Source of the DNA: Escherichia coli
GTDB lineage: Bacteria > Pseudomonadota > Gammaproteobacteria > Enterobacterales > Enterobacteriaceae
DNA length: 64,000 bases
Assembly (NCBI RefSeq): GCF_965641715.1
Contig: NZ_OZ282453.1
Reading direction: 5' to 3' (one strand)
This document shows, piece by piece, positions 2,278-50,349 of the stretch (position 1 is its first letter; every line of letters begins with the position of its first letter). A program made the position numbers and the translations under genes. The notes beneath the pieces were generated by a model, which did not search any database, had not been told where the DNA came from, and saw nothing but the letters and a program-made list of their open reading frames with translations.

Positions 2278-4296
2278 TTAGACGGCAATAGCGATTAGCA
2301 GCACAACCAGTGCGGCAACCACATACAGGCAATAGAGACGAAAGTCGCCGCTTTGCAGATGCTGTATTTCTTTGGCCAGCCGTTGGGTGGCGCTCACGAT
2401 GGGGCGGATCACCCGCTCATCCCAGAAGGGTTCTGTGCTCTGAGCCCTGGCGGTGACGTGCGCAAGACCTTTATTTAGCCTCAGCGTAGGGTCGAGCTGT
2501 TGTCGTAGACGAAATAGCGCAGAGAAGACCACACGCAGCGGCTGCATCACGCCATTGCCTGACGGGGCCATCGCATTTTCCCAGCCGTAGCCGCATGCCC
2601 AGGCATCTCCTGTGCGACGAAACGCTGCGCGGCGCGAACGACACCACAGCCAGTAAAGGCCAGGCAGCAAAGGCATCGCCAGTAGTAACAGCAACAGTAA
2701 TGAGGGAGTGACCCGTGTATGAAACGTGCCGGGTACAAGTGCTATTCCGCTGGCGACAGTGACGGGAGGGGTATCGGTAAAGGCATGGGCAATATGCATT
2801 ATCTTCGGTGCCAGCCAACTGGCACTAAGCGCAATTAATACGCAGAGTGCCGCGAGCAGTAGCATGGCGACGATCATCGTATTTGGCACTTCCTGTGCCT
2901 CTTCAGCGTGTGTACTGCGCGGCGCACCACAGAAAGTAATACCGTACATTTTGACGAAGCACATTACTGCCAGCCCACCAGTGACTGCCAGCATCACCAT
3001 AGCAATAGGACCCGCAAGTTGTAGCGCTACGGCTTCCACACGACTTAGTGAGAACAGCGACTGCCAGGTGTACCATTCGCTGATAAAACCATTCAGCGGA
3101 GGAAGGGCTGATATCGCGAGGCAACCAATCAGGCATGCTGCGGCTGTCCACGGCATCCGTTTCGCCAGTGCCCCCATTTTTTCCATGTCGTGGGTATGCA
3201 AACGCGAAATAATCGCGCCCGCGCCGAGAAATAGCAGCCCTTTGAACAGCGCATGGTTGAGCAGATGAAACAGTGCGCCGAGCAGTCCAACCACGGTGAG
3301 CAGCGGGTCGTGCAGTGACAGACCGACCATCGCCACACCGACTGCCAGCAAAATAATGCCGACGTTTTCGACGGTACTCCAGGCCAGCAGCCGTTTGATA
3401 TCCTGTTCCGCCAGCGCATACAGCACGCCCAGGAGCGCGGAGATTGCGCCGATCGCCATCACCAGAATGCCCCACCACAGCGGCAAACCCGTTTGCGCCA
3501 GCAGATCCATCGCCACTTTCAGGATGCCGAAAATACCGATTTTGACCATTACGCCAGACATCAACGCCGAAGCGTGCGATGGTGCGGCAGGGTGAGCGCG
3601 CGGCAACCAGCTGTGCAACGGCATCATCCCGGCTTTCGCGCCAAAACCGAAAAAGGCCAGCAGGAACACCGCCGACGCCAGCCCCGGAGAAAGTGAAAGC
3701 GTGCGGAAACTGGCAAAATCGAGGCTGCCGCTTTCGCGCCCCATCAGCAAGAAGGCGATCATAATCAGCACCGATCCGGCGTGGGCGATAAAAAAGTAGA
3801 GCATGCCAGCGTTGATTGACGTTTTATCCTGCCTGGCAATGACCAGAAACCAGGAAGACAGCGACATCATTTCAAACAGCACGATGAACCAAAAAGCGTT
3901 GTCCATCACCAGCAGGGCAACCATCGATGCGATAAAAAGATTCATAAAGAAGCCCATCGCCGCCGCGCCTTTGCCCTCGTATTCGCGCATATAAGTCAAT
4001 GAATAGAGCGAACAAACCACCACAAGCAAGGAGATAACCAGCACCATAAATGCCGAGAGACTATCCATTCGCAGGGTTAAATCGGCAAAGTCAAAAGGGG
4101 TGGCAAAACGGGCGACTAAAGTTACGCCTGCATGTAATTGCGTAATTCCGCTGATGATGCCAATCACGCCGCCCACCAGCGATGTGATGGCGGAAAGCTT
4201 AATAGCCAGTCTGTCCAGACCGAGTAAAAACAGCGAAGCCAGACTGGCAAACAGATAGAGGATCAGCGACCAGGTTAATAATTGCAGGGCATCCAT
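2278..4296 (-). CDS. hyfB: hydrogenase-4 membrane subunit HyfB (NuoL-like antiporter family)
   Basis: 672-aa polytopic membrane ORF; start overlaps the hyfA stop at 4296. Confidence 0.85.
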   Translation of the reverse strand: MDALQLLTWSLILYLFASLASLFLLGLDRLAIKLSAITSLVGGVIGIISGITQLHAGVTLVARFATPFDFADLTLRMDSLSAFMVLVISLLVVVCSLYSLTYMREYEGKGAAAMGFFMNLFIASMVALLVMDNAFWFIVLFEMMSLSSWFLVIARQDKTSINAGMLYFFIAHAGSVLIMIAFLLMGRESGSLDFASFRTLSLSPGLASAVFLLAFFGFGAKAGMMPLHSWLPRAHPAAPSHASALMSGVMVKIGIFGILKVAMDLLAQTGLPLWWGILVMAIGAISALLGVLYALAEQDIKRLLAWSTVENVGIILLAVGVAMVGLSLHDPLLTVVGLLGALFHLLNHALFKGLLFLGAGAIISRLHTHDMEKMGALAKRMPWTAAACLIGCLAISALPPLNGFISEWYTWQSLFSLSRVEAVALQLAGPIAMVMLAVTGGLAVMCFVKMYGITFCGAPRSTHAEEAQEVPNTMIVAMLLLAALCVLIALSASWLAPKIMHIAHAFTDTPPVTVASGIALVPGTFHTRVTPSLLLLLLLAMPLLPGLYWLWCRSRRAAFRRTGDAWACGYGWENAMAPSGNGVMQPLRVVFSALFRLRQQLDPTLRLNKGLAHVTARAQSTEPFWDERVIRPIVSATQRLAKEIQHLQSGDFRLYCLYVVAALVVLLIAIAV

Positions 4297-4913
4297 TAGC
4301 GTTGCTCCTGAGTGAGGGAAAGGGGATCCTCCCCGCCATTGGCAAACCAGCTTGCGGCAAGGCGCTGTTTTTCTTTCATCTGACGTTGCAGGCTATCGTC
4401 GGTGATCAGCCGTAACGCCTGATTCGGGCAAGCGCGAACGCAGGCCGGACCTTGTGGCAAGAAATCACACAGGTCGCATTTCACCGCGACGGTCTGGACA
4501 CCCGGTTCCCAGCGCAGCAAAGCATGTTGTGTTGGCGCGTTTTCTTCGCCGTCTTTGAGTGAGCCCTCAGCCTGAAAAACATATTGCGCAGGGGCATTCA
4601 CCGGACGGCTTCCTGAAGCGCTGATTGCGCCAAATGGGCAGACTACGGCGCAAAGCTTGCAGCCAATACAGAGGCTTTCGTTGAGTTGGATCGCATCATC
4701 CCTCGGGGAGATGGCATTGACCGGGCAGACCTGCAGGCAAGGGGCTTCCTCACAGTGATGACACACGACAGGGGCAGTGAGTGTTGACGTCTTCGCCAGG
4801 GCCAGGCGCGGGTGTTGCTGTAAACCTTGCGTTTTATGCACGTCCGAACAGGCAGCGAGACAGGTATTACATCCTGTACACCACAGTGGTTCGGCCACCA
4901 CAAAGCGGTTCAT
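4296..4913 (-). CDS. hyfA: hydrogenase-4 ferredoxin-type 4Fe-4S subunit HyfA
   Basis: Repeated CxxCxxCxxxCP cysteine clusters; 205 aa from internal Met MNRFVVAEPLWC. Confidence 0.85.
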   Translation of the reverse strand: MNRFVVAEPLWCTGCNTCLAACSDVHKTQGLQQHPRLALAKTSTLTAPVVCHHCEEAPCLQVCPVNAISPRDDAIQLNESLCIGCKLCAVVCPFGAISASGSRPVNAPAQYVFQAEGSLKDGEENAPTQHALLRWEPGVQTVAVKCDLCDFLPQGPACVRACPNQALRLITDDSLQRQMKEKQRLAASWFANGGEDPLSLTQEQR

Positions 4914-5165
4914 GTCGGCTCCTTGAAAATGATATGAAACATTGCGTTTCATATTGCATAAAGGATGCCAGTCTGATTAATTTAATATATTCAATAAGTT
5001 ATGAATTAACTGGATTCTGAACGGTACAAAAATGATGGTCATTAACGTTCAGCAAAAAATGGATTCGACACCCGTGTCGCAGGGGAAAGTGAGAATGTGA
5101 TCTTGGTCACGAGAAGTGAGGTGTGCTGACCACAAGCGCAGCCAGCACGGAATGGAGCAAAGTAA

Positions 5166-5636
5166 TCAGGCGTGTTCTTTCAACCAGTTCAGCACAACGT
5201 CGTGGTGATTGCTGGTTTTGAAATCGTCAAAGACATGTTCGATTTTGCCATCAGCGTCAATCAGGAAGCTGATGCGATGAATACCATCGTAGGTTTTGCC
5301 CATGAAGGACTTTTCACCCCAGACGCCGAATTGTTCGCACACCTGGTGGTCCTCATCAGACAGGAGCGTAAAGTTAAGCAGCTCTTTTTCCGCAAAACGG
5401 GAGAGTTTTTCGGGTTTATCGGTGCTGATACCCAGCACATCAACGCCCGCTTTTTTCAACTCATCCATGTTATCGCGTAAGCCGCAGGCCTGTACGGTAC
5501 AGCCGGGGGTCATGGCTTTCGGGTAGAAATAAACCAGAACACGCTGTCCCTGGAAGTCGGTCAAATTAACTTGTTCTCCGTCTTGATCCGGCAAGCTAAA
5601 TTTCGGTGCGATATCACCGGCTTTCAGTGGATTCAT
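5166..5636 (-). CDS. bcp: thiol peroxidase Bcp (peroxiredoxin)
   Basis: 156 aa MNPLKAGDIAPKF...; peroxiredoxin PGCT motif. Confidence 0.9.
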   Translation of the reverse strand: MNPLKAGDIAPKFSLPDQDGEQVNLTDFQGQRVLVYFYPKAMTPGCTVQACGLRDNMDELKKAGVDVLGISTDKPEKLSRFAEKELLNFTLLSDEDHQVCEQFGVWGEKSFMGKTYDGIHRISFLIDADGKIEHVFDDFKTSNHHDVVLNWLKEHA

Positions 5637-6208
5637 TACTTAACTCCATCCTGTTCATCATGTTGGGAATAATTGACGACGTTAATACTGCCTTGTGCAT
5701 TGAGTTCTGTACATAGGGCTTTGAACGCTTGCTCAATATTTGCTGCGTCCGCAGATGCGGGGCTGTGGGCAGTAATCTGAATATGCAACTGCGCAGCCCG
5801 TTCATTTTCAGCAGGTTGTGTGCGCGACACCAGCTCCGCAATGTTCATATGATGCGTGTCGAAAAGTGCTGTGAAGCGTTCAATTAAATGCGGGGAGTCT
5901 GCCACATCGACCTGAACCCAGACAGATGCTGGCATTGGCGGACGCGGACGCGCCGTCGTGCGCTTCATCACGATTAAAAGATCCAGTTCGGCACCTTTCA
6001 ACGGTAACGTTGATTCAATCAGAGTAATGGCATTCCATGAACCGGAAAGCAGCATGATAAACGTGAACTCTTCTCCCAGCATCGCCAGGCGACTGTCTTC
6101 AATATTACAGCCGCAACTACTGACATGACGGGTGATGGTGTTCACAATTCCAGGGCGATCGGCACCCAACGCAGTGATCACCAGATAATGTTGCGATGAC
6201 AGTGTCAA
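5636..6208 (-). CDS. gcvR: glycine cleavage system transcriptional repressor GcvR
   Basis: 190 aa MTLSSQHYLVITALGADRPGIV...; start codon read as TTG at 6208-6206; stop overlaps the bcp start by 1 nt. Confidence 0.8.
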   Translation of the reverse strand: MTLSSQHYLVITALGADRPGIVNTITRHVSSCGCNIEDSRLAMLGEEFTFIMLLSGSWNAITLIESTLPLKGAELDLLIVMKRTTARPRPPMPASVWVQVDVADSPHLIERFTALFDTHHMNIAELVSRTQPAENERAAQLHIQITAHSPASADAANIEQAFKALCTELNAQGSINVVNYSQHDEQDGVK

Positions 6209-6353
6209 ACTGGTTATTCCTTTAAGGGGTGAGTTGTTCTTAAGGAAAGCATAAAAAAAACATGCATACAACAATCAGAACGGTTCTGTCTGCTTGCTTT
6301 TAATGCCATACCAAACGTACCATTGAGACACTTGTTTGCACAGAGGATGGCCC

Positions 6354-7232
6354 ATGTTCACGGGAAGTATTGTCGCGATTGTTACTCCGATGGATGAAAA
6401 AGGTAATGTCTGTCGGGCTAGCTTGAAAAAACTGATTGATTATCATGTCGCCAGCGGTACTTCGGCGATCGTTTCTGTTGGCACCACTGGCGAGTCCGCT
6501 ACCTTAAATCATGACGAACATGCTGATGTGGTGATGATGACGCTGGAGCTGGCTGACGGGCGCATTCCGGTGATTGCCGGGACCGGTGCTAACGCTACTG
6601 CGGAAGCCATTAGCCTGACGCAGCGCTTCAATGACAGTGGTATCGTCGGCTGCCTGACGGTAACCCCTTACTACAATCGTCCGTCGCAAGAAGGTTTGTA
6701 TCAGCATTTCAAAGCCATCGCTGAGCATACTGACCTGCCGCAAATTCTGTATAATGTGCCGTCCCGTACTGGCTGCGATCTGCTCCCGGAAACGGTGGGC
6801 CGTCTGGCGAAAGTAAAAAATATTATCGGAATCAAAGAGGCAACAGGGAACTTAACGCGTGTAAACCAGATCAAAGAGCTGGTTTCAGATGATTTTGTTC
6901 TGCTGAGCGGCGATGATGCGAGCGCGCTGGACTTCATGCAATTAGGCGGTCATGGGGTTATTTCCGTTACGGCTAACGTCGCAGCGCGTGATATGGCCCA
7001 GATGTGCAAACTGGCAGCAGAAGGGCATTTTGCCGAGGCACGCGTTATTAATCAGCGTCTGATGCCATTACACAACAAACTATTTGTCGAACCCAATCCA
7101 ATCCCGGTGAAATGGGCATGTAAGGAACTGGGTCTTGTGGCGACCGATACGCTGCGCCTGCCAATGACACCAATCACCGACAGTGGTCGTGAGACGGTCA
7201 GAGCGGCGCTTAAGCATGCCGGTTTGCTGTAA
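6354..7232 (+). CDS. dapA: 4-hydroxy-tetrahydrodipicolinate synthase
   Basis: 292 aa [17 protein letters not shown]... Confidence 0.9.
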
Positions 7233-7248
7233 AGTTTAGGGAGATTTG

Positions 7249-8283
7249 ATGGCTTACTCTGTTCAAAAGTCGCGCCTGGCAAAGGTTGCGGGTGTTTCGC
7301 TTGTTTTATTACTCGCTGCCTGTAGTTCTGACTCACGCTATAAGCGTCAGGTCAGTGGTGATGAAGCCTACCTGGAAGCGGCACCGCTTGCGGAGCTTCA
7401 TGCCCCGGCTGGAATGATTTTGCCGGTGACCTCCGGTGATTATGCAATCCCGGTGACCAACGGTAGTGGTGCTGTCGGTAAGGCGCTGGACATTCGTCCA
7501 CCAGCCCAGCCGCTGGCACTGGTTTCTGGCGCGCGTACCCAGTTCACGGGCGATACCGCTTCATTGCTGGTGGAAAATGGTCGTGGCAATACTCTGTGGC
7601 CGCAGGTGGTTAGCGTGCTGCAGGCGAAAAACTACACCATCACCCAACGTGATGATGCTGGTCAGACACTGACCACCGATTGGGTACAATGGAACCGTCT
7701 GGACGAAGACGAGCAGTATCGTGGTCGTTATCAAATCTCTGTTAAGCCGCAGGGTTATCAGCAGGCGGTTACGGTTAAACTGCTGAACCTGGAACAGGCG
7801 GGCAAACCGGTTGCAGACGCGGCTTCCATGCAGCGTTACAGCACGGAGATGATGAACGTTATTTCCGCCGGTCTGGATAAATCTGCCACTGACGCCGCGA
7901 ACGCTGCGCAAAATCGTGCCTCCACCACTATGGACGTACAAAGTGCAGCTGATGACACCGGTTTACCAATGCTGGTCGTACGCGGGCCGTTCAATGTGGT
8001 TTGGCAACGTCTGCCAGCGGCGCTGGAAAAAGTGGGCATGAAAGTGACCGACAGCACCCGTTCGCAGGGCAACATGGCCGTAACTTATAAGCCGCTGTCT
8101 GACAGCGACTGGCAGGAACTGGGCGCGAGCGATCCAGGCCTGGCATCCGGTGACTATAAACTGCAGGTTGGCGATTTAGATAACCGCAGCAGCCTACAGT
8201 TCATCGATCCGAAAGGTCATACTCTGACTCAGAGTCAGAACGACGCGCTGGTAGCTGTCTTCCAGGCTGCGTTTAGCAAGTAA
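7249..8283 (+). CDS. bamC: outer membrane protein assembly factor BamC (NlpB lipoprotein)
   Basis: 344 aa with lipoprotein signal ...LLAACSS; immediately downstream of dapA. Confidence 0.9.
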
Positions 8284-18653: not shown

Positions 18654-20354
18654 TTACATTAACTGACTTTCCTCACCCTCCGCAGAGCGAAAGCTAATAC
18701 TCACTAACGTGCCGCCGCCGGAAGGTTGTGAAAAAGTCAGCGTCCCACCCAGCCGTTCCGCGCGTTCGCGCATGATATTCAGACCATAATGACCTTCGGG
18801 TTCTTTCGGTTCACCGATACCAATCCCGTTATCACGGATATAAACCGTGTGATTGCCGTCCGGCGCGGTGACGCAACTGACGGCAATTTCGCTGGCGTTG
18901 GCGTGCTTCATCGCATTTAGCACCGCTTCGCGAATAATTTGCAACAAATGCACCTGCATTTGCGCATCCAGCGCCAGGGTTGGCAGACGGCAGTCGAGGG
19001 TCAGTTTGGCGCTGGTTTGATTTTGTAACGTATCCAGCATTTCCCTCAACGCGGAGGGGAGATCCGCCTGCTGCAGCGTCAGGCGGAAAGTAGTCAACAG
19101 CTCGCGTAACTGCCGATAAGCATCATTCAACGCCTGGGAAAAATCGGCCATGATACTTTGTGCGGTGTCGTTATCTTCCGGTATCGAACGCTTCAGTAAC
19201 GTCAACTGGATACGTAAGTAAGAAAGCACCTGAGCCAGCGAGTCGTGCAATTCGCGGGCGATGGTCGCACGTTCTTCCATCAACAATAACTGCTGAAAAT
19301 GCTTCTGCGCCTGATTAAAGTACAAACCGCGTCCCAGCATCGACGAAACGCTGTTAAGCAGCGGTTCTGATGATGAAACGTGACTATTTTGCCAGTGCAG
19401 TTCGCCGTAAACCGTCTCTTGCATTGTCACCGGTAAAATCTGCATCGGCAATTCCGGGTTTGGTTGCCCTTCGCTAATCCGCCAGTTTTCACCGACATTT
19501 AACTCCAGATATTCAGCCGCTTCATTGTCGCGAACAATCTGCAAAATATGGCGGAAACAATGCACATCAATCTGGCTGGTGTTCAGCGCCTGCGAACACT
19601 GATACAACACCTCCAGACGACGCTTGGCCTCGTGGAGATCGCGGGTCTTTTCTTCTACTGACGCCTCCAGCGAACGGTACAATTTATGTAGCTCGCTCGA
19701 CATCTGGTTAAAGGTTTTTGCAAGCAGGCCAAGCTCATTCGGCAGGCTGGTATCCAGCGGTGGCGAGTCGAACTGTCCGTGTTCAATACGCTGACTGGCG
19801 GTAACCAGCTGATTCAGCGGGGCAACCACCTGATGGCGTATGCGGCGCAAAGTAAAAAAGACCAGCGTGAAAATACCGATGCCGCCAGCCAGGGAAATCG
19901 CCACCACCAGCAGCATTTTGCGTTCAGCGTAGTGCTGTAAAGCCAGCACGAACAGGTCTATCTGATTAACATAATTATTAATATTGGCCTGATACCACGG
20001 CAAGTCGCCCTTGCTGAGACGATTATTCATCTCCAGCCAGTTGGCATTCAGATGCGCATAGCGAGTTTTTACTGCCTCTGGCACATACCAGACGTTGAGG
20101 TTGGTTAATACCGGTGAATGCAGTGCCTGCTGAAATAACTGGCGATGTGCATTGAGTTGTGGACTGCCACTTTGCAAGTCGTAGCCCAGGCGGTAACTCT
20201 GCATACGCAGCGATCCGGCAATATTGATAGCCTCAGCGTCGCGCAAACTGCTCGCCAGAGTTAGCAGAGCGATACCCGTGGAAAGAATCGACAGCAGCAC
20301 AATGTAAAAAAAGGCCCGGGCCAGACTGGCCGAGACGGGTCGTTTAACAATCAC
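18654..20354 (-). CDS. narQ: nitrate/nitrite sensor histidine kinase NarQ
   Basis: 566 aa from a GTG start (track residue V in ...VIVKRPVSASL); HAMP and histidine-kinase regions. Confidence 0.9.
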   Translation of the reverse strand: MIVKRPVSASLARAFFYIVLLSILSTGIALLTLASSLRDAEAINIAGSLRMQSYRLGYDLQSGSPQLNAHRQLFQQALHSPVLTNLNVWYVPEAVKTRYAHLNANWLEMNNRLSKGDLPWYQANINNYVNQIDLFVLALQHYAERKMLLVVAISLAGGIGIFTLVFFTLRRIRHQVVAPLNQLVTASQRIEHGQFDSPPLDTSLPNELGLLAKTFNQMSSELHKLYRSLEASVEEKTRDLHEAKRRLEVLYQCSQALNTSQIDVHCFRHILQIVRDNEAAEYLELNVGENWRISEGQPNPELPMQILPVTMQETVYGELHWQNSHVSSSEPLLNSVSSMLGRGLYFNQAQKHFQQLLLMEERATIARELHDSLAQVLSYLRIQLTLLKRSIPEDNDTAQSIMADFSQALNDAYRQLRELLTTFRLTLQQADLPSALREMLDTLQNQTSAKLTLDCRLPTLALDAQMQVHLLQIIREAVLNAMKHANASEIAVSCVTAPDGNHTVYIRDNGIGIGEPKEPEGHYGLNIMRERAERLGGTLTFSQPSGGGTLVSISFRSAEGEESQLM

Positions 20355-20559
20355 ACGCGTCTTCTCCACAAAAAATCATTAATGTTCCAGTTCGCTGAAA
20401 CGCAATTTAGTCAGTGATGGGATTATTTGATCTGCCACAGTTTATAGCGAAATAGTTACTTATTCTGGGCACATGAACATTGCCGATTCCCCTGTAAGTC
20501 GGGTAATAACAACACTCATATAAAGAATAAGGTTTTTACAACCAAAAAAGAAGGTCGTT

Positions 20560-30656: not shown

Positions 30657-31136
30657 ATGAAACGAATTGCGTTTGTGGGTACCGTCGGGGCAGGGAAAAC
30701 AACGTTATTTAATGCGTTGCAGGGGAATTATACCCTCGCCAGAAAAACACAGGCCGTGGAATTTAATGATAAGGGCGATATTGATACGCCGGGTGAATAT
30801 TTTAGCCATCCCCGCTGGTATCACGCCTTAATTACCACGCTACAGGATGTGGACATGCTGATCTATGTCCACGGCGCGAATGACCCGGAAAGTCGGTTGC
30901 CTGCCGGGTTGCTGGATATTGGCGTCAGCAAACGGCAAATCGCCGTCATCAGTAAAACGGACATGCCAGATGCTGACGTCGCCGCAACGCGAAAGTTATT
31001 GCTTGAGACTGGCTTCGAAGAGCCAATTTTCGAGCTAAACAGCCACGACCCGCAAAGCGTGCAGCAACTGGTGGATTATCTGGCATCTCTCACCAAACAG
31101 GAGGAAGCAGGTGAAAAAACTCATCACAGCGAATGA
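30657..31136 (+). CDS. eutP: ethanolamine utilization GTPase-like protein EutP
   Basis: 159 aa with GTVGAGKTT P-loop. Confidence 0.85.
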   Translation: MKRIAFVGTVGAGKTTLFNALQGNYTLARKTQAVEFNDKGDIDTPGEYFSHPRWYHALITTLQDVDMLIYVHGANDPESRLPAGLLDIGVSKRQIAVISKTDMPDADVAATRKLLLETGFEEPIFELNSHDPQSVQQLVDYLASLTKQEEAGEKTHHSE

Positions 31137-31812
31137 TATTCGTGAAGCACACGCGCGCGGCGAACAGGCAATGTCCGTGGTTCTGCGCGCCAGCATTATT
31201 ACCCCGGAAGCCCGTGAAGTGGCGGATCTACTGGGTTTTACCATCACCGAATGTGATGAATCGATCCCGGTAACGGCGTCCGTGCCCGCCAGCGTGCCAG
31301 CCGATAAAACCGAAAGTCAGCGCATCCGCGAAACCATCATTGCCCAGCTGCCGGAAGGCCAGTTTACCGAAAGCCTGGTCGCGCAGTTGATGGAAAAAGT
31401 GATGAAGGAAAAACAGTCGCTGGAGCAGGGTGCAATGCAGCCGAGCTTCAAATCGGTGACCGGCAAAGGCGGCATCAAAGTGATTGATGGCAGCAGCGTC
31501 AAGTTTGGTCGTTTCGACGGCGCAGAGCCGCATTGCGTGGGCTTAACTGACCTTGTGACCGGAGACGACGGCAGCAGCATGGCCGCTGGTTTTATGCAGT
31601 GGGAGAACGCATTCTTCCCGTGGCCCCTGAACTACGACGAAATCGACATGGTGCTGGAAGGGGAGCTGCATGTTCGCCACGCAGGCGAAACCATGATCGC
31701 TAAAGCAGGCGACGTGATGTTTATCCCGAAAGGCTCCAGCATCGAATTTGGTACGACATCCAGCGTGAAATTCCTGTATGTCGCCTGGCCGGCTAACTGG
31801 CAATCCCTATGA
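31111..31812 (+). CDS. eutQ: ethanolamine utilization protein EutQ (cupin)
   Basis: 233 aa; start overlaps the eutP 3' end by 26 nt. Confidence 0.85.
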   Translation: MKKLITANDIREAHARGEQAMSVVLRASIITPEAREVADLLGFTITECDESIPVTASVPASVPADKTESQRIRETIIAQLPEGQFTESLVAQLMEKVMKEKQSLEQGAMQPSFKSVTGKGGIKVIDGSSVKFGRFDGAEPHCVGLTDLVTGDDGSSMAAGFMQWENAFFPWPLNYDEIDMVLEGELHVRHAGETMIAKAGDVMFIPKGSSIEFGTTSSVKFLYVAWPANWQSL

Positions 31813-32612
31813 AAGATTTCATCACCGAAGCATGGCTAAGAGCGAACCATACGCTCAGCGAAGGCGCAGAGATCCATCTCCCTGCGGACAGTCGCCTGAC
31901 GCCCTCTGCCCGGGAGTTGCTGGAAAGCCGCCATCTGCGCATCAAGTTTATTGACGAGCAGGGCCGCCTGTTTGTTGACGATGAACAGCAGCAGCCGCAG
32001 CCCGTTCATGGGCTGACCAGTAGCGATGAACATCCGCAGGCGTGCTGCGAACTGTGCCGCCAGCCGGTGGCAAAAAAGCCGGACACGCTGACTCACCTGT
32101 CGGCGGAAAAAATGGTCGCCAAAAGCGATCCGCGTCTGGGTTTTCGCGCGGTTCTCGACAGCACCATTGCGCTGGCAGTGTGGCTGCAAATTGAACTGGC
32201 GGAACCGTGGCAGCCGTGGCTTGCGGATATCCGTTCGCGTCTTGGCAACATTATGCGTGCCGATGCGCTGGGGGAACCGCTGGGCGATCAAGCGATTGTC
32301 GGGCTTTCTGACGAAGATCTGCATCGGCTTTCTCATCAGCCGCTGCGCTATCTCGGCCACGATCATCTGGTGCCGGAAGCCAGCCACGGGCGCGATGCTG
32401 CGTTGCTCAATCTGCTACGCACCAAAGTGCGGGAAACCGAAACCGTAGCGGCGCAGGTGTTTATCACCCGCAGCTTTGAAGTATTACGCCCGGACATCTT
32501 GCAGGCGCTGAACCGCCTTTCGAGCACGGTCTACGTGATGATGATCCTGAGCGTAACGAAGCCGCCGCTAACGGTGAAGCAGATCCAACAACGACTGGGG
32601 GAAACGCAATGA
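31809..32612 (+). CDS. eutT: ethanolamine utilization cob(I)alamin adenosyltransferase EutT
   Basis: 267 aa; 4-nt overlap with both neighbours. Confidence 0.85.
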
Positions 32613-33625
32613 TTATTGAACGTTGTCGTGAACTGGCGTTGCGAGCGCCCGCCAGGGTGGTTTTTCCGGATGCGTTAGATCAACGTGTGCTGAAAGCTGC
32701 GCAATATTTACATCAACAAGGTCTGGCAACGCCCATTCTGGTCGCCAATCCGTTTGAACTTCGTCAGTTTGCGCTCAGTCACGGCGTGGCGATGGACGGG
32801 CTACAGGTGATTGATCCGCATGGCAACCTCGCAATGCGGGAAGAATTTGCTCATCGCTGGCTGGCCCGCGCGGGCGAAAAAACGCCGCCGGATGCGCTGG
32901 AAAAACTTACCGATCCGCTGATGTTCGCCGCCGCAATGGTCAGCGCCGGTAAAGCGGATGTCTGTATCGCGGGCAACCTCTCTTCCACGGCGAATGTGCT
33001 GCGTGCCGGATTACGCATTATCGGCTTGCAGCCAGGCTGTAAAACGCTCTCTTCCATTTTCCTGATGCTGCCACAGTACAGCGGTCCGGCGTTGGGTTTT
33101 GCGGATTGCAGCGTGGTGCCACAGCCGACGGCGGCGCAGCTGGCGGATATCGCACTTGCCAGCGCTGAAACCTGGCGCACCATCACCGGAGAAGAGCCGC
33201 GCGTGGCGATGTTGTCGTTTTCCAGCAACGGTAGCGCCCGTCACCCCTGCGTTGCCAATGTCCAGCAGGCGACAGAAATCGTCCGTGAGCGCGCACCAAA
33301 GCTGGTAGTCGATGGCGAGTTGCAGTTTGACGCCGCCTTCGTGCCGGAAGTGGCGGCGCAAAAAGCGCCTGCCAGCCCGCTACAGGGCAAGGCCAATGTG
33401 ATGGTTTTTCCGTCGCTGGAAGCCGGAAATATTGGCTACAAAATCGCACAACGACTCGGCGGATATCGTGCCGTCGGGCCATTGATACAAGGACTTGCCG
33501 CGCCGATGCACGATCTCTCTCGTGGTTGTAGCGTGCAGGAAATTATCGAGCTGGCGCTGGTGGCAGCTGTGCCGCGTCAGACAGAAATGAACCGCGAAAG
33601 CAGTTTACAAACACTGGTTGAATGA
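32609..33625 (+). CDS. eutD: ethanolamine utilization phosphotransacetylase EutD
   Basis: 338 aa phosphate acetyltransferase-like sequence. Confidence 0.85.
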
Positions 33626-37905: not shown

Positions 37906-39132
37906 ATGGGAATTAACGAAATCATCATGTACATCATGATGTTCTTTATGCTGATAGCTGCCGTAGACAGGATCCTGTCGCAGTTCGGCGGTTCTGCTCG
38001 TTTCCTCGGTAAGTTCGGTAAAAGTATCGAAGGATCAGGCGGTCAGTTCGAAGAAGGCTTTATGGCAATGGGCGCACTGGGCCTGGCGATGGTCGGTATG
38101 ACCGCGCTGGCACCGGTACTGGCTCACGTTCTCGGGCCGGTAATTATTCCGGTTTACGAAATGCTCGGCGCTAACCCATCGATGTTCGCCGGAACACTGC
38201 TGGCGTGCGATATGGGCGGCTTCTTCCTCGCCAAAGAGCTGGCGGGCGGCGACGTAGCCGCGTGGCTATACTCTGGGTTAATTCTCGGGTCGATGATGGG
38301 GCCAACGATTGTGTTTTCCATTCCGGTGGCGCTCGGCATTATCGAACCTTCTGACCGTCGTTATCTGGCGCTCGGCGTGCTGGCGGGCATTGTGACCATT
38401 CCGATTGGTTGTATCGCTGGTGGTCTGGTTGCTATGTACTCCGGTGTTCAGATCAACGGCCAGCCGGTGGAATTCACTTTCGCCCTGATCCTGATGAACA
38501 TGATCCCGGTGATCATTGTTGCGATTCTGGTGGCGCTGGGGCTGAAATTCATCCCAGAAAAAATGATCAACGGCTTCCAGATCTTCGCCAAATTCCTCGT
38601 TGCATTGATCACCCTCGGTCTTGCCGCTGCGGTAGTGAAATTCCTGCTTGGCTGGGAACTGATCCCCGGTCTGGATCCTATCTTTATGGCCCCTGGCGAT
38701 AAACCCGGTGAGGTGATGCGCGCCATTGAAGTTATCGGTTCTATCTCCTGCGTTCTGTTAGGGGCGTATCCGATGGTGCTGCTGCTGACCCGCTGGTTTG
38801 AAAAACCGCTGATGAGCGTCGGTAAAGTGCTGAATATGAACAACATCGCGGCAGCCGGCATGGTGGCAACGCTTGCCAACAACATCCCGATGTTCGGCAT
38901 GATGAAGCAGATGGATACCCGCGGCAAAGTCATCAACTGCGCCTTCGCCGTTTCCGCTGCTTTCGCCCTGGGCGACCACTTAGGCTTCGCCGCTGCCAAC
39001 ATGAATGCCATGATCTTCCCGATGATTGTCGGCAAGTTGATCGGCGGCGTAACGGCGATTGGCGTGGCGATGATGCTGGTGCCAAAAGACGACGCGACCG
39101 CGGCTAAAACCGAAGCGGAGGCACAATCGTGA
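37906..39132 (+). CDS. eutH: ethanolamine permease EutH
   Basis: 408-aa polytopic membrane protein. Confidence 0.85.
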   Translation: MGINEIIMYIMMFFMLIAAVDRILSQFGGSARFLGKFGKSIEGSGGQFEEGFMAMGALGLAMVGMTALAPVLAHVLGPVIIPVYEMLGANPSMFAGTLLACDMGGFFLAKELAGGDVAAWLYSGLILGSMMGPTIVFSIPVALGIIEPSDRRYLALGVLAGIVTIPIGCIAGGLVAMYSGVQINGQPVEFTFALILMNMIPVIIVAILVALGLKFIPEKMINGFQIFAKFLVALITLGLAAAVVKFLLGWELIPGLDPIFMAPGDKPGEVMRAIEVIGSISCVLLGAYPMVLLLTRWFEKPLMSVGKVLNMNNIAAAGMVATLANNIPMFGMMKQMDTRGKVINCAFAVSAAFALGDHLGFAAANMNAMIFPMIVGKLIGGVTAIGVAMMLVPKDDATAAKTEAEAQS

Positions 39133-40532: not shown

Positions 40533-40626
40533 ATACTGTAGTTATCAGGCGTGGCGCTGGGTGGCTGGGTGTTAGTGGGATTATATCCGGCTGTGTATCC
40601 GGTCGGGGTGATTGGTCTGTATAGCA

Positions 40627-40647
40627 GAAAACCCGGCGCGGGGCCGG
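40627..40647 (-). terminator. rho-independent terminator of the eutA-proximal cargo gene
   Basis: cccggc gcgg gccggg hairpin with a U tract on the minus-strand transcript; a near-identical copy is at 42316-42337. Confidence 0.6.
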
Positions 40648-40655
40648 GTGAACTA

Positions 40656-41216
40656 TCACTCAGGGAACAAGTTGATTTGAAGCAAACTGCCAATGTATTT
40701 ACCAGTGCTTTTAATTTTTCGCTTTGATGGCTTACACGAATTCAGGTTGACACCAGCCTGGCTAGATATTGGCTTGTATTGCCGCTCCGCCAGTACGATC
40801 AGGTCTGCCGCGTCTTTTAGCTTTCCATCGTTAGCCAGTTCCAATGCTCGATCCGCCATTTGCCCGCATTGTTGAATCAGCTTAAGTTGCGATACCTCCA
40901 GTCGCAATTGCTGGATTCGTTCTACCACTTTCGCCCTAATGCGCTTAGTTTCACGCATTCCCATTCTTAATGCCTGGTTGCCAGTAAGTGAGTAAACCTC
41001 TTTTTCTTTCCTGAAGTTTGCGGCTTTACCGTCAGCTTGGACGCGCATTTTATGCGCTTCCAAGAATTCGCCCTCCAATTCATCCCTGATCTTCGCGTTG
41101 AATCTGTCGTTCTTGAGTTCATTTAACCCTTCCGCCTTGCGGATCTGGTTGATTAACTCCAACAATTCATCACTGCGGATACGCCACTCGCTATCAACCT
41201 GTACCAAGTCAAACAT
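40656..41216 (-). CDS. hypothetical protein (island cargo); function unknown
   Basis: ORF track 40656..41309 begins at a TTG; the internal ATG at 41216 (MFDLVQVDSEWRIR...) has a GGGAG Shine-Dalgarno 6 nt upstream, giving 186 aa; basic C-terminus; own terminator. Confidence 0.55.
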   Translation of the reverse strand: MFDLVQVDSEWRIRSDELLELINQIRKAEGLNELKNDRFNAKIRDELEGEFLEAHKMRVQADGKAANFRKEKEVYSLTGNQALRMGMRETKRIRAKVVERIQQLRLEVSQLKLIQQCGQMADRALELANDGKLKDAADLIVLAERQYKPISSQAGVNLNSCKPSKRKIKSTGKYIGSLLQINLFPE

Positions 41217-41380
41217 GTTGTTGCTCCCGTTTTGCTGCCATAGGGCAACGGCTCGCCAGCCTTTATCACCTCCTTTAGTTGTTGCGATTCTTAACTGAAT
41301 GGTTATCAAAACGCTGCGTTAATATCATTGATATGTATCAAATTTGTTTTGTGACGCGACAATGCCTTGTGAATATCAAT

Positions 41381-41404
41381 AAAAAACCCAGCGCTATGGC
41401 TGGG
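41381..41404 (-). terminator. rho-independent terminator of the HTH cargo gene
   Basis: cccagc gctatg gctggg hairpin with a U tract on the minus-strand transcript. Confidence 0.55.
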
Positions 41405-41437
41405 CTTCGTTTAATGAGATGGGATTGAAAGCGGGTT

Positions 41438-42220
41438 TTATTTATCTCCCAGATTGTATTCCCAGTTGGGAAGTAAAGTTATCAGCTTGTCACCTTTCTT
41501 GCCTTTGCCGATCTGGTTGCCGTTCTCGTCTTTCTTGTGTGTGATTTCCTGGTCAACCTTAATCAATCCTCTCTCTTTGGCTTGCTCAATCAGTCGGTAG
41601 AATGCGCCGTTACTAATCGGCTTCCGGTTACCGTCGTTATCCATCGCAGTGATTTTCTGTTGCAGTCCGGCGTTATTGCCCAGGTATTCGCCACCTAACG
41701 CCGCCAGTACCTGACACAACATGCCGACACTGTATTTTTTCGGATTTGGGTTAATCCATTCTTTAGCTCCCATCTCTTTTTTGTCGTTGGGCGCTTGTTC
41801 TGCTGCTACTGCGTTCACCTTTTCATCTCCCATCTTGTTACCGCTTGCTGTGCGCTTAATTTCTTCCAGTTCTCTCTCAAGCTCACCTATACGTAATTCA
41901 CGCTCGATAATTACCCCGCGCAGCACATCATCATCACCGTGAGGGCTTGCCTGAATCCAGTTACCATTGGCGAGCGGTAGGAGGGCATAAATTCCGAACA
42001 GGTCACAAAGCGCGGCAAGTGTATTAAAATCAGGTTCCCGGCGTCCCTCCATCCAGTGGCTAACAGCGCCTTTTGTGACTGGTTCGCCTTTCTTGCTTTT
42101 AACACCCATGCGATCCAGTGCGGCGGCTATCTCTTCGCATTTAATGCCACGACCGCCAGCATAGCCCGCCGCTTTCGCGGCCCCTTTGAGGATGTCGTGA
42201 ATTTTCATTTCGTAACTCAT
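41438..42220 (-). CDS. XRE/Cro-C1-type helix-turn-helix domain protein (island cargo)
   Basis: ORF track 41438..42235; preferred start is the second ATG (MSYEMKIHD...) with a GGGAGA Shine-Dalgarno; HTH-like segment IKCEEIAAALDRMGVKSKKGEPVTKGAVSHWMEG; coiled-coil middle; Lys/Gly-rich C-terminus. Confidence 0.6.
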   Translation of the reverse strand: MSYEMKIHDILKGAAKAAGYAGGRGIKCEEIAAALDRMGVKSKKGEPVTKGAVSHWMEGRREPDFNTLAALCDLFGIYALLPLANGNWIQASPHGDDDVLRGVIIERELRIGELERELEEIKRTASGNKMGDEKVNAVAAEQAPNDKKEMGAKEWINPNPKKYSVGMLCQVLAALGGEYLGNNAGLQQKITAMDNDGNRKPISNGAFYRLIEQAKERGLIKVDQEITHKKDENGNQIGKGKKGDKLITLLPNWEYNLGDK

Positions 42221-42226
42221 AATTTT

Positions 42227-42257
42227 ATCTCCCATCTCATGAACTATGGTGGGAGAT
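42227..42257. promoter_or_regulatory. perfect 8-bp inverted repeat (atctccca N15 tgggagat) over the start region of the HTH gene
   Basis: Arms at 42227-42234 and 42250-42257; one arm contains the Shine-Dalgarno and first ATG of the minus-strand gene; tgggagat recurs at 42958-42965. Confidence 0.45.
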
Positions 42258-42315
42258 TAACACGGCGGGCCTGTGGCGGGTAAGTGTAACGGGAGAGAAT
42301 GTTGATTCAGGTCAC

Positions 42316-42337
42316 AAAAACCCGGCGCGGGGCCGGG
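42316..42337 (-). terminator. rho-independent terminator of the 158-aa cargo gene
   Basis: cccggc gcgg(g) gccggg hairpin with a U tract on the minus-strand transcript. Confidence 0.6.
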
Positions 42338-42359
42338 CTGTGTTAGTACGTCGTTGCTC

Positions 42360-42836
42360 TTAGTTCATGAGGAGATCTTTAAATTCGACGCCGTATTCAT
42401 GGGCAATGTCGCCTCTATAGTAGATGTTATCTTTCAGGATATATCCGACGTTTCTCAGGACGTGAGAACACTCTCTTACTGCTGCCTCTTTACCCCTTAA
42501 AACATCCTCCCCGCTAACTTCTTCGCCGCTGTACTTCACTGCGATGTTGTCTGCTGCACGCTCTGCTGCTTCCAGGCAATTAATCTTCACTTTTCCCCGA
42601 TTCTCCCAGGCAAAATCGCGGCCATAAATCCCCATTGCATCAACCATCTTTTGCGCAGTAGTGCGCTCATCCACCCATTCAGTGCGTTCGAACTTCTCGC
42701 CAGCAGCTACCCTTGCCGCCAGTTGTTCGTGTTGAGTCTGTACGGCCGCAGCCTCTTCTTCCCATTTGCCTTGCTCGTTGTATACGATGAAGCCAGTGAT
42801 GACTGCAGCGATTAGTAACTTGTCCAGAAAATTCAT
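42360..42836 (-). CDS. membrane-anchored hypothetical protein (island cargo)
   Basis: 158 aa; AGGAGG Shine-Dalgarno 5 nt upstream of the ATG; single N-terminal hydrophobic helix LLIAAVITGFIVY followed by a charged soluble domain. Confidence 0.6.
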   Translation of the reverse strand: MNFLDKLLIAAVITGFIVYNEQGKWEEEAAAVQTQHEQLAARVAAGEKFERTEWVDERTTAQKMVDAMGIYGRDFAWENRGKVKINCLEAAERAADNIAVKYSGEEVSGEDVLRGKEAAVRECSHVLRNVGYILKDNIYYRGDIAHEYGVEFKDLLMN

Positions 42837-43120
42837 AGCTTCCTCCTATCTGTTCAATTACCCGGCATCTCTTGCCGTTGAACGTATTAAACAAAATGCC
42901 AGTCAGGGATAAAGCGATCTGCGTCATAAAGTCCATCCCCCATCTCATTGATATTGATGGGAGATTGTTTAATTGGTCAGAAATTAAGCGTTTATGTGCG
43001 CTGCCGGGTATCCACCTCCTATCTGAAGATGGAAAGATGGGTGATATAATGTGATGGCAATTGGTGGATTGCGTGGTTTTTACAATGATAAGGGGCTGGC
43101 GTAATGCTGGCCCCTTTGTT

Positions 43121-43162
43121 TATCCGGTATCCGGTATCCGGTATAAGCGGGCGTGTATCCGG
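43121..43162. repeat. cluster of four tatccgg motifs (three tandem 7-mers plus one)
   Basis: tatccggtatccggtatccggtataagcgggcgtgtatccgg; related copies at 40584-40602 and, inverted, at 51558-51565. Confidence 0.5.
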
Positions 43163-43356
43163 TAGCGGGGATATGGGCGCGTGTACGTGAAATCTGGCAA
43201 ATTAGCAGGGTAATTGTGAGGGAATTTTTGCGTAGGAGCGTTTGTGGCTGGTAGCTCAAAATTGAGCTTTGCTTTTCATTCAATGACTTAGGTTAATTCT
43301 AGCAAAACGCTAGGATTGAATGTCCGCCAGTCTGCTTCCCCTAGCGTGGGATTTGG

Positions 43357-45723
43357 TCAACGTCTGCGCGGCTGCAAAATTCCTCCGGGTCGTTGTGATT
43401 CACGCTGCATCAGTCGCATCGCTGTGTTTTCTATGGTCTGCTGCAGCGCTTTTGAGTCTTCCTCTGTCCAGCCGTTGTTAGCCTGGATGTTGAACGTATT
43501 GTTCATCGTGATTCCGCCACCGCCTACCAGATCGCGGCCCGGTGTAACTCGTCCACCTTCACCCGGGATCATGTACTGTTTCCCGCCAGTGGATGTAAAT
43601 AGCTCCGGTACTCCGTGCTCCCCGACCCTATAAAGATTGCCACCGTTAACAGCCCCGCCGTTGTAACGAGCGCCAGCCAGTCCAAGCGTTTTGGCGGCAG
43701 CTACGCCAGTAGTAAGCCCGGTAAGTCCAGTGGCCCCAGCGCCGCCCATCGTGGCTACGTTAGCCAGGTATGCAGGAGTGGCCCACGCCGATCCTAATGC
43801 TGTAGCCTCTGCTAGTGCTTTAGCTGTTGCGGCTGCGTTTGCGGCTTCACCAATTAGCTGCTGTTTAACCCACTCAGCACCCATCTGGACAATGCCACCG
43901 ACCACAGAAGACAGGATCGTACTGCCAACGTTGGCAAGTGACTCTTGCAGCGATTGAGTACCGTTTATCAGTCCGGTAAATGCGCTGCCAGCGCCAGACG
44001 ATAACCCATCGACCATATTCCCGATGAGGCCATTTATATCGCTTTGTTTCTTCCACTGCTGCCACTGGAGATCCAGAACCCTTTGTTCATGTGCGATCTC
44101 TTCCTGGCGCAACTGCTCTTCGGTAGCCCCAAGATCTAGAAGCATTTGCTTGCGAACAGCCCATTCATTTTGGATCTTCTGTATTGGGTCAATCTGAGCT
44201 TTCTGCTTATCCTGCTCACTGACAAGACTGTCCCATTTCGCTTTCTGCTTGCGGATGGCTTCAGCTTCATCAATTGCTGCGAGTGTACTTGCTCGCTGTT
44301 TCGCGCTGATCAACCGTTTCTGCTCAGCCGCTTCCAGGTCTTCTACTGCTTTTTTCCGTTTATTGAGCGCCGCTAGTTCGGGATCGTATTTTTCCACCAA
44401 TGAAAGGCCGCTTGCTTCCTTACGTTCGCGTTCTCTTTGTGCCTGTTTGGCTGCCTGCTTAGCGGCGTTTTCTGCTTGTTTGGCTGCTCTTTCTTTCGCC
44501 CTGGTGTTCTCTTCTTCCTTGCGCTTATTCTCTTCTAACTCCTTGTTTTGTTCGCGTAATTTAACGATTTCCTCATGATGCGCCTTTGTCAGCTGGCCTT
44601 CTTTCAGTGCCCGATCTATATCAGCGTTTGCGTTGCCTTTTAGCTGTTCCTGTTTAACTTGCAGATGTTTAATCATCATTTCGCCAGTGGCAATCGCTGC
44701 CGCAGACGCTCCAGCATTCAGAGCTTCATTTAACGCTCTCTGACGTTCTTCTGCTGTTAATGCCTCGTTGCTGTATCGAAGTAGCGCATCAACGTATTTC
44801 TCCAGTTCTGCGCGGCCTGCCGCAGTTGCTGGTTCCATTGCTTTTAGGATGCTCAGAAGGCTTTGCGCTTCATAGGAAGACGGGTTTTTGCGGAACTGCG
44901 CCATAGCGTTATAAAGCGCCATAGCTTCACCCTCTGTGATTCTGTACTTAGCTCCCAGCCCTTCAATGACCGCTGATAACTGTTTGCCAAGCGCTGCACC
45001 GAATGCGCCTTCCTTGCTTAATTTGTTGAGCACTTCACTCAGTGAATTTCCTGACACGCCCAGCGCGTCGAGTTCTCTTGCTACCGTTCCCAGGTCGCCG
45101 CCTTTCATCCATCCTGCATTAGAAAATTCAGTGATAGCCCGGCCCGCTTCCCGCGTTTCTTCCTGGAGTGTTTTTAGCGCCCGCACGGCCTGCTCTTTCA
45201 TTACGGCGGCGGCAATGGCGTTGTTCTGTGTGGCTTCGTAATATGAATCACTGAAAGCGTTAACGCCCTGGGTGGATTTGCCGATCACGGCGTCGATTGA
45301 TGCTAATGCCTCCTTCATCCTTTCAGCGCTATCCGTTGCGTCGTCCATGCTGTCCGTTAGGCTGTTGGCAATCGCCCCGCCAATAGCCATCACCGCCCCC
45401 ATGACCGCACCGCCAGTACCGAAGGCAGCGGCAAGTTGTGCACCCTGCACAGCGAACGCCTGGAGCGCATTACCGCCCATCTGCAATTGAGTGGCAAGGT
45501 CTGCGATCTGGTATGATGCGTTACGGATTGCCGGGGAAAGGTTGGTTTTGACTGCGGCAGACGTTTTGGTCATCTGCGTGTTCAGTTTTTTGACGCCACT
45601 GTCAGCGCGTTTTGCGCCGCGTTCTATACTGTCAAAAGCCTGGTCCGCTTCTTGTTGTGCTGCCAGGAGTTTACCAGTACGGGCGTCGACCTCATAGTAT
45701 ATGGTCCCAAGATTCCCACTCAT
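43357..45723 (-). CDS. phage tail tape-measure protein, lambda gpH-like
   Basis: 788 aa; N-terminal Gly/Ala-rich hydrophobic segment (GGAVMGAVMAIGGAI); long Ala/Lys/Glu/Gln-rich coiled-coil centre; C-terminal Gly-rich region with NLYR and NNTFNIQ motifs resembling the lambda H C-terminus as recalled; no Walker A motif. Confidence 0.7.
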   Translation of the reverse strand: MSGNLGTIYYEVDARTGKLLAAQQEADQAFDSIERGAKRADSGVKKLNTQMTKTSAAVKTNLSPAIRNASYQIADLATQLQMGGNALQAFAVQGAQLAAAFGTGGAVMGAVMAIGGAIANSLTDSMDDATDSAERMKEALASIDAVIGKSTQGVNAFSDSYYEATQNNAIAAAVMKEQAVRALKTLQEETREAGRAITEFSNAGWMKGGDLGTVARELDALGVSGNSLSEVLNKLSKEGAFGAALGKQLSAVIEGLGAKYRITEGEAMALYNAMAQFRKNPSSYEAQSLLSILKAMEPATAAGRAELEKYVDALLRYSNEALTAEERQRALNEALNAGASAAAIATGEMMIKHLQVKQEQLKGNANADIDRALKEGQLTKAHHEEIVKLREQNKELEENKRKEEENTRAKERAAKQAENAAKQAAKQAQRERERKEASGLSLVEKYDPELAALNKRKKAVEDLEAAEQKRLISAKQRASTLAAIDEAEAIRKQKAKWDSLVSEQDKQKAQIDPIQKIQNEWAVRKQMLLDLGATEEQLRQEEIAHEQRVLDLQWQQWKKQSDINGLIGNMVDGLSSGAGSAFTGLINGTQSLQESLANVGSTILSSVVGGIVQMGAEWVKQQLIGEAANAAATAKALAEATALGSAWATPAYLANVATMGGAGATGLTGLTTGVAAAKTLGLAGARYNGGAVNGGNLYRVGEHGVPELFTSTGGKQYMIPGEGGRVTPGRDLVGGGGITMNNTFNIQANNGWTEEDSKALQQTIENTAMRLMQRESQRPGGILQPRRR

Positions 45724-46012
45724 AATATCTTTATCCGCGTTGTGCGGACACCTCCGATTATTCTTTACTCTAATAATTTCACAATGAAACAGTTTATTGC
45801 CGCTTCAGTGGCTTCGTGTTCCGGTTTGCTTCGATCAATCACAAAAAATACAGCTTAATAGAATCAATGGCTTATAAAGTTGTATTAGCTATGTTTCTTC
45901 GTCCGTGCCACTGAAAACCCAGTTTTTCCAATGGAATCAATACTGATATGTATCCATACTGTTTTTCACATAATGTACGTTATGCGCACTACGGGAAACG
46001 TACTGAATTTAT

Positions 46013-46243: not shown

Positions 46244-46430
46244 GTCGTCTCTCCCTCGCGCGCGCGTCGTACTTGTCCGAAAATTACCCCCATAAAAGCG
46301 CCCCTCATATAGTGCAAAATCCCGGCTGACGCGGATCTCAGTGGGTTTTAGCAGTGAAAACTGACATCAAAAACGGCTCGCTAAGGTCCGCTAAGTATCC
46401 GCTATCGTTCGCTAACCCCCCGCTAACCTA

Positions 46431-46796: not shown

Positions 46797-46838
46797 TGTT
46801 AAGTCAGCCGGGGTAATTCCCGGCTTTCTTTTATCCGA

Positions 46839-47381: not shown

Positions 47382-47398
47382 TGTCTTTCCTCCTCCGA

Positions 47399-50342: not shown

Positions 50343-50349
50343 TTATAGT

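Follow-up and report, generated by a model that had tools for sequence, protein, structure and literature searches.

Start codons and gene junctions in the window

The stretch of DNA analyzed here (the window; 64,000 nt) covers the E. coli chromosome from hyfD to murQ, with the gene order hyfD–hyfA, bcp, gcvR, dapA, bamC, purC ... acrD, narQ, aegA ... maeB and the eut operon, with hemF, amiA ... murQ after eutR. An 11.2-kb insertion (40533–51743) interrupts the eut operon between eutA and eutB. The region from 4000 to 8000 has matches in 5,425 out of 5,426 complete E. coli genomes, and strain A30 is 100% identical there. Genes of the A30 RefSeq annotation were transferred to the window by BLAST and, because the window as a whole differs from A30, their limits were recomputed in window coordinates. 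All of the recomputed genes are intact ORFs, and their limits agree with the RefSeq/PGAP annotation of A30, the closest genome; this agreement, like that with the NCBIfam profiles given below, is partly circular, since the models derive from E. coli-like annotations.

The gcvR coding sequence, which encodes the glycine cleavage system transcriptional repressor, lies on the minus strand at 5636–6208 and consists of 190 codons and a TAA stop in an intact reading frame. Its product scores 398.2 bits against the NCBIfam equivalog NF008612 (cutoff 267), with residues 1–189 corresponding to positions 1–189 of the 189 in the profile. The initiation codon, TTG (6208–6206), is followed by ACA CTG TCA TCG CAA (TLSSQ), giving (M)TLSSQHYLVITALGADRPGIVNTITR as the predicted N-terminal peptide, and is preceded by a Shine-Dalgarno sequence AGGAA (6217–6221), with 8 nt between the two. 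At the other end of the gene, the TAA stop (5638–5636) and the ATG of bcp (5636–5634) have base 5636 in common, so that the junction reads TAATG (5634–5638) on the minus strand, an overlap of 1 nt. The bcp gene (5166–5636, minus strand; thiol peroxidase) has its own Shine-Dalgarno sequence, GGAG at 5644–5647, which falls within gcvR codons 187–189 and leaves a 7-nt spacer. PGAP (A30) and the K-12 MG1655 record place both genes identically: K-12 gcvR (b2479, NP_416974.4) and bcp (b2480) have the same layout, with the TTG start and the 1-nt TAATG overlap. The window copy of gcvR differs from that of K-12 at five nucleotides and one amino acid (A118T), and the 60 nt upstream are identical.

The narQ coding sequence (18654–20354, minus strand) starts at a GTG (20354–20352) followed by IVKRPVS, and its product matches NCBIfam NF008184 with 930 bits (residues 1–562 on profile positions 1–564 of 565). 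This GTG is part of a GUGUGA sequence (20356–20351) in which two GUGs overlap: the 5′ GUG (20356–20354) is followed in frame by UGA, and the 3′ GUG is the annotated start, with an A at position 4 of the coding sequence. A GGAG Shine-Dalgarno sequence (20364–20367) stands 9 nt upstream.

In the eut operon, which lies on the plus strand, the first 26 nt of eutQ (31111–31812; NF012001, match 1–233 of 233) overlap the 3′ end of eutP (30657–31136; NF012011, match 1–159 of 159) at 31111–31136. The GTG start of eutQ at 31111 is preceded by GGAGG (31100–31104) with a 6-nt spacer; the ribosome-binding sites of gcvR, narQ, and eutQ thus all have spacings of 5–10 nt (8, 9, and 6 nt, respectively). The eutT gene (31809–32612; NF011595, match 1–267 of 267) overlaps both of its neighbors by 4 nt at ATGA sequences, eutQ at 31809–31812 and eutD (pta; 32609–33625) at 32609–32612. 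A further 4-nt overlap, GTGA at 39129–39132, places the GTG start of eutA over the TGA stop of eutH. Elsewhere in the window, eutJ and eutG overlap by 11 nt, ypeA and yfeZ by 14 nt, and hyfA and hyfB by 1 nt at a TAATG at 4296.

The preliminary description of this DNA had reported the TTG start of gcvR and its one-base overlap with bcp, the GTG start of narQ, the 26-nt eutP/eutQ overlap, and the 4-nt overlaps of eutT with both neighbors. These readings proved exact, although the 5′ GUG and UGA of the narQ site had been overlooked. Its list was also incomplete: the GTG starts of eutQ and eutA and the eutH/eutA, eutJ/eutG, hyfA/hyfB, and ypeA/yfeZ overlaps were not in it.

Neither non-ATG starts nor short overlaps are enriched in the window, in keeping with the earlier characterization of these features as ordinary. 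The 47 backbone coding sequences have 43 ATG, three GTG, and one TTG start codons, while the E. coli norm for ATG, GTG, and TTG is 83%, 14%, and 3% (bioRxiv 10.1101/063800); four non-ATG starts compare with approximately eight expected (P = 0.97 for four or more, binomial). Among co-directional gene pairs, seven out of 35 are separated by −8 to +6 nt, compared with 707 out of 2987 (24%) genome-wide (PMC10666635; P = 0.76, binomial). Six further pairs in the window lie at +9 to +12 nt, the other distance peak in E. coli (PMC10666635). An enrichment of either feature is therefore rejected by comparison with the genome-wide figures.

Initiation at gcvR and narQ

A scan of one genome per species yielded 80 gcvR loci in Enterobacteriaceae, to which Serratia, a Yersiniaceae genome, Dickeya, and Erwinia were added. 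The first codon of gcvR is TTG in all 84 of these Enterobacterales loci (80 out of 80 Enterobacteriaceae species and the four additional genomes). In Budvicia aquatica, whose protein is 67% identical, GTG stands at the aligned codon, again preceded by AGGAAG: a swap of start codon at an unchanged position. For gcvR, the one gene in which start-codon conservation was examined, the start position in orthologues is never CTN or TTA. The AGGAA at positions −13 to −9 is likewise invariant (68 unique sequences; 37-sequence alignment). At greater distance (40%–44% identity), gcvR of Photobacterium, Vibrio litoralis, and Parasalinivibrio begins with an ATG located 2–6 codons ahead of the conserved HYLVITA strand.

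Two alternative placements of the start can be weighed against these data. A start farther upstream, for example at an in-frame TTG at 6274, would give an ORF of 212 aa and turn the TTG at 6208 into an internal leucine codon. The frame is indeed open back to 6274, and database models of orthologues with 201–223 aa exist, the 212-aa ORF being annotated in many Salmonella records. However, the pattern of variation argues against coding upstream of 6208. Downstream from the TTG, variability at codon positions 1, 2, and 3 is 0.077, 0.029, and 0.299, respectively, which is a coding signature, whereas upstream it is flat (0.197, 0.263, and 0.254); the onset of codon periodicity is exactly at the TTG. 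In approximately 30 species, among them members of Enterobacter, Leclercia, Kluyvera, and Erwinia, an in-frame stop lies 7–12 codons upstream and the interval contains no ATG, GTG, or TTG, so that in these species the TTG is the first possible start. An internal leucine codon would also be expected to vary synonymously: all 10 invariant internal leucines of GcvR use three to six synonymous codons each, and none of 20 fourfold degenerate sites is invariant; drift to CTG or CTT would thus be expected of this TTG too, were it no more than a leucine codon. The GTG of Budvicia at the same position points the same way, as do the distant homologues and the solved structure of the Vibrio cholerae homologue (PDB 1U8S), which begin within a few residues of the TTG point (chain residue 4 of 1U8S aligns to residue 6 of E. 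coli GcvR). With periodicity absent upstream, stops in frame, and the codon invariant, we regard an upstream start as effectively refuted.

A start downstream, at a GTG in codon 10 (6181–6179) or a TTG in codon 15, is scarcely credible either. Each is in frame in E. coli and belongs to the canonical start codons, but codon 10 is GTT, GTC, or GTA in 59 of the 68 unique sequences, and neither codon has a ribosome-binding site on its 5′ side. Initiation at either would remove the conserved first strand HYLVITALG, which is part of the match to 1U8S, and coding-type conservation is already present from codon 1. These two candidates were rejected on the grounds that codon 10 is not kept, that no ribosome-binding site precedes them, and that the first strand would be lost. 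The comparative sequence data thus strongly support the TTG at 6208–6206 as the correct start of gcvR.

A UUG start for gcvR was reportedly determined experimentally by Ghrist and Stauffer (their report is said to be in J Bacteriol, 1998). A full-text literature search for gcvR in combination with UUG, TTG, or "start codon" returned no match. There is no row for GcvR or NarQ among the TRAINSPOTTER Table S1 entries examined, and neither protein is found in the INRI-seq supplements as far as these were covered. In this respect, gcvR and narQ differ, within the data examined, from rpsT (TTG), cra (GTG), and eutQ (GTG), whose near-cognate starts are confirmed by N-terminal peptides, with the non-AUG codon read as fMet and a ribosome-binding site 5′ of it. 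Published N-terminal peptides, which the preliminary description had named as a check, match the annotated starts of EutQ and Bcp.

We also considered whether the ribosome-binding site of gcvR is hidden in a hairpin, in which a UUUCCUU at about −40 would pair with AAGGAAG. The fold of the E. coli sequence is no better than that of shuffled sequences (z = −0.34). The pairing is not maintained: UUUACC is found in Serratia, the Yersiniaceae genome, Dickeya, Erwinia, and Budvicia, all of which keep the ribosome-binding site unchanged. This candidate was rejected for both reasons. A search for Rfam families found none anywhere in the window.

The GUGUGA of narQ is the most interesting detail among the features described here, and it is already published. 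The K-12 narQ site, a GUGUGA with a moderate-strength GGAG Shine-Dalgarno sequence, has been characterized with reporters (NAR 2022, PMC9841429), and we detect no difference between it and the window, where GUGUGA and GGAG stand at the same spacing. Both GUGs were found to initiate. Mutation of A4 to G reduced reporter expression and moved initiation to the competing frame, which the authors of that study read as the loss of termination-reinitiation at the UGA; the A4 dependence was seen in a reporter with 20 nt of the K-12 narQ 5′ UTR, and the dependence on RF2 in model GUGUGA constructs (PMC9841429). A single unambiguous GUG gave approximately seven- to eightfold more expression than GUGUGA (PMC9841429). 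By extension to the window, narQ would start at the 3′ GUG, the 5′ GUG with its immediate UGA allowing ribosomes to terminate and restart in the narQ frame, and the arrangement would lower output approximately seven- to eightfold relative to a single GUG.

Overlaps and translational coupling

Gene order around gcvR is conserved: in the window and in nine loci with listed gene calls, from Serratia to Vibrionaceae, gcvR is divergent from dapA and followed by bcp. In the 78 Enterobacteriaceae loci whose sequence extends beyond the junction, bcp lies 3′ of gcvR; the start of dapA is found upstream in 12 out of 13 sampled loci. The junction itself reads TAATG in at least 65 of the 80 Enterobacteriaceae species, the others having TGATG, ATGA, or gaps of +2 or +3 nt. 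Among the 78 complete Enterobacteriaceae loci, the distance between the two genes is always −4 to +3 nt, and it falls in this range in Serratia, the Yersiniaceae genome, Dickeya, and Budvicia as well; the exception is one Erwinia genome, with a 23-nt overlap. In Vibrionaceae, the gcvR–bcp order is kept with spacers of 50–75 nt. Judged by these sequences, the tight gcvR/bcp junction is a trait of Enterobacterales.

The 3′ end of gcvR appears to carry more than coding information. The bcp Shine-Dalgarno region GGATGGAG, or a one-base variant of it, is present at every junction among those listed. Synonymous variation in gcvR is low over the last ~30 codons (0.59–0.77 bits, compared with 1.2–1.4 bits in the middle of the gene), and codons 166–168 and 173–174 are completely invariant. 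This dip suggests that signals for bcp are embedded there, and the invariant synonymous sites located 60–75 nt before bcp are a hint of an internal promoter. A scan for consensus promoters found no minus-strand site inside gcvR. A promoter survey gives gcvR and bcp as separate transcription units. The Bcp N-terminal peptide MNPLKAGDIAPK... has been detected in K-12, in an identical start context, and the bcp start carries an INRI flag; as the upstream sequence in INRI-seq constructs is limited to 30 nt, bcp is able to initiate on its own.

How far does translation of bcp depend on gcvR? A ribosome ending gcvR could restart on the bcp AUG via the common base, and under strict termination-reinitiation such ribosomes would provide most bcp translation, the 1-nt overlap being the coupling device. 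The narrow range of junction distances kept in Enterobacteriaceae and in the related genomes named above is what this explanation would predict, and overlaps of −1 and −4 nt usually do couple. Several observations nevertheless make it unlikely. A weak UUG start and a regulator as product imply that few ribosomes would be available for coupling, and Bcp is a much more abundant enzyme than GcvR. Furthermore, bcp is served by a GGAG of its own, at a spacing of 7 nt, and carries the INRI flag, the two genes are listed as separate transcription units, an internal promoter is hinted at by the invariant synonymous sites, and Vibrionaceae keep the same order with much longer spacers. We infer that the bulk of Bcp synthesis does not depend on gcvR translation and proceeds from the GGAG within the gcvR 3′ end and probably from a promoter of its own, with coupling through the 1-nt overlap as a possible, minor route.

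For the eut operon, the preliminary description had considered the overlaps consistent with translational coupling. This fits the 4-nt overlaps of eutT by their geometry, but does not extend to the 26-nt eutP/eutQ overlap. Efficient coupling needs distances of about −8 to +6 nt, and −4 is the commonest distance in E. coli, followed by −1 and −8 (PMC10666635). The gcvR/bcp (−1), eutQ/eutT, eutT/eutD, and eutH/eutA (all −4) junctions lie within this range, whereas eutP/eutQ (−26) does not. The 26-nt overlap is itself real, given that the EutQ N-terminal peptide MKKLITANDIR, read from the GTG, has been detected in K-12, where the 60-nt context is identical. The start of eutQ is INRI-flagged and lies 6 nt downstream from a strong GGAGG, so eutQ can initiate de novo; the GUG 26 nt inside eutP most likely initiates on its own.

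More generally, gcvR/bcp, hyfA/hyfB (−1), and the 4-nt overlaps eutQ/eutT, eutT/eutD, and eutH/eutA (ATGA or GTGA) share the coupling geometries described by Huber et al. 2019/2023 (PMC6728339, PMC10666635), whereas eutP/eutQ, eutJ/eutG (−11), and ypeA/yfeZ (−14) are outside the −8 to +6 range of that work. The geometry of the 4-nt overlaps would support termination-reinitiation. An alternative is that the short overlaps have no function, start and stop codons shifting easily onto ATGA or TAATG and being tolerated in compact operons. It gains some weight from the drift of the gcvR/bcp geometry between species (−1, −4, +2, and +3 nt), from the frequency of overlaps in the window, which equals the genome average, and from the fact that, of five other E. 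coli pairs with 4-nt overlaps in reporter tests, one was uncoupled. However, three of those five were strongly coupled and one partly, 13 out of 14 pairs were coupled when E. coli and Haloferax are taken together, coupling falls off steeply with distance in the termination-reinitiation literature, and the gcvR/bcp junction never extends beyond +3 nt in the 78 complete Enterobacteriaceae junctions. We therefore regard an absence of function as rather doubtful, though less so than strict dependence of bcp on gcvR, and consider translational coupling at the 1-nt and 4-nt overlaps plausible from their geometry.

Annotation and dosage of GcvR

The reading that we favor, with a probability of roughly 0.9, is that the near-cognate starts and short overlaps of the window are authentic translation signals, of an ordinary kind, in conserved E. 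coli genes. For gcvR, this would mean translation from the UUG at 6208–6206, directed by AGGAA at a distance of 8 nt.

The preliminary description had also held that these features matter for automatic annotation, and for GcvR the databases bear this out. Gene callers differ in the start that they select, with the result that models of its orthologues are 177–223 aa long; the family itself has 184–191 aa. The 212-aa models of Salmonella start at an upstream TTG, and the 195-aa models of Yersiniaceae at an upstream ATG, with the true start read as leucine. The K-12 accession is at version 4, which implies that its sequence has been revised repeatedly. Callers that choose the longest ORF or prefer ATG misplace the GcvR N terminus, and the same type of error would lengthen dapA (TTG at 6336 instead of ATG at 6354) and eutB (GTG at 51702 instead of ATG at 51744). 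A rule for the family is to place the gcvR start at the TTG (or GTG) located 8 nt downstream from the invariant AGGAA.

Near-cognate starts, ATGA and TAATG overlaps, and the narQ GUGUGA are all documented, and current understanding of them is unchanged by these data. The comparison of sequences makes one small addition: neither the gcvR UUG nor its ribosome-binding site varies among the Enterobacterales loci compared, apart from GUG in Budviciaceae; in Vibrionaceae, the start is AUG.

What might such invariance mean? Within the 10%–100% range of initiation measured for canonical start codons, UUG ranks at the low end, and a weak UUG start would keep GcvR, an accessory repressor, scarce. The general trend is for selection to favor AUG (PMC5622118), and the invariance of the gcvR UUG against this trend suggests gene-specific selection for a weak start. 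The invariance is a constraint; by itself it does not identify low expression as the selected trait. With UUG in 84 out of 85 Enterobacterales loci, GUG in Budvicia, and AUG in Vibrionaceae, we suggest tentatively, at somewhat less than even odds, that the UUG may serve to set gene dosage and be actively maintained for it, instead of being a frozen accident. Together with the compacted junction, it would keep GcvR at a low level compared with its partner GcvA, and the last ~30 codons of gcvR would serve as an expression platform for bcp, containing its ribosome-binding site and probably its promoter.

The gcvR 3′ end and its flanking region

Over the last ~30 codons of gcvR (5636-5730, minus strand), synonymous variation is approximately halved, and two runs of codons, 166-168 (TGTACAGAA) and 173-174 (GGCAGT), are constant in all 84 sequences compared. 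Taken together, the invariant codons and the reduced synonymous variation suggest that, besides the ribosome-binding site of bcp, the 3′ end of gcvR harbors a putative internal bcp promoter.

Upstream of gcvR, the intergenic region shared with dapA contains three blocks that are nearly invariant across Enterobacterales: 6244-6261 (GGTTTTTTTTATGCTTTCC), 6293-6301 (AAAAGCAAG), and 6311-6325 (CAATGGTACGTTTGG). They presumably act as promoter or operator elements for dapA and gcvR, which are divergently oriented; within the same region, the gcvR promoter has been predicted as TTAAAA-18-TCTGAT in a published survey.

The database protein P0029 is a 331-aa GcvR-Bcp "fusion" assigned to the fungus Astraeus odoratus; it almost certainly reflects contaminating bacterial sequence in which the gene was called incorrectly. 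The GcvR of one Erwinia genome is extended at its C terminus and runs 23 nt into bcp (positions 1269-1291 of compared locus L086), an arrangement that looks like the result of a frameshift or of stop-codon loss.

Start codons of narQ, dapA, and eutB

The narQ start lies in the sequence GUGUGA (20351-20356, minus strand), which forms a start-stop mini-ORF: a 5′ GUG that overlaps the annotated start and runs directly into UGA. This sequence has been described as an ambiguous initiation site dependent on termination-reinitiation (PMC9841429). For dapA and eutB, the longest open reading frames begin upstream of the annotated starts, at TTG 6336 rather than ATG 6354 and at GTG 51702 rather than ATG 51744, respectively (both plus strand); the dapA ATG is supported by an N-terminal peptide from K-12.

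The eut operon: an insertion and gene spacing

The gap between eutA and eutB holds an 11.2-kb insertion (40533-51743) at the CPZ-55 prophage site. Alongside HTH proteins and an intZ-type tyrosine integrase (51555-50350, minus strand), it carries a 788-aa ORF that shows weak tape-measure-like similarity. Since coverage of the insertion reaches at most 63%, at ~94% identity, in any of 5,426 complete E. coli genomes, part of its cargo is rare.

Six co-directional gene pairs in the window are spaced by +9 to +12 nt: hyfC/B and, within the eut operon (30309-55195), eutS/P, eutN/E, eutE/J, eutC/L, and eutL/K. These spacings agree with the secondary peak at approximately +10/11 nt reported for E. coli, which has been attributed to polycistronic genes that initiate independently.
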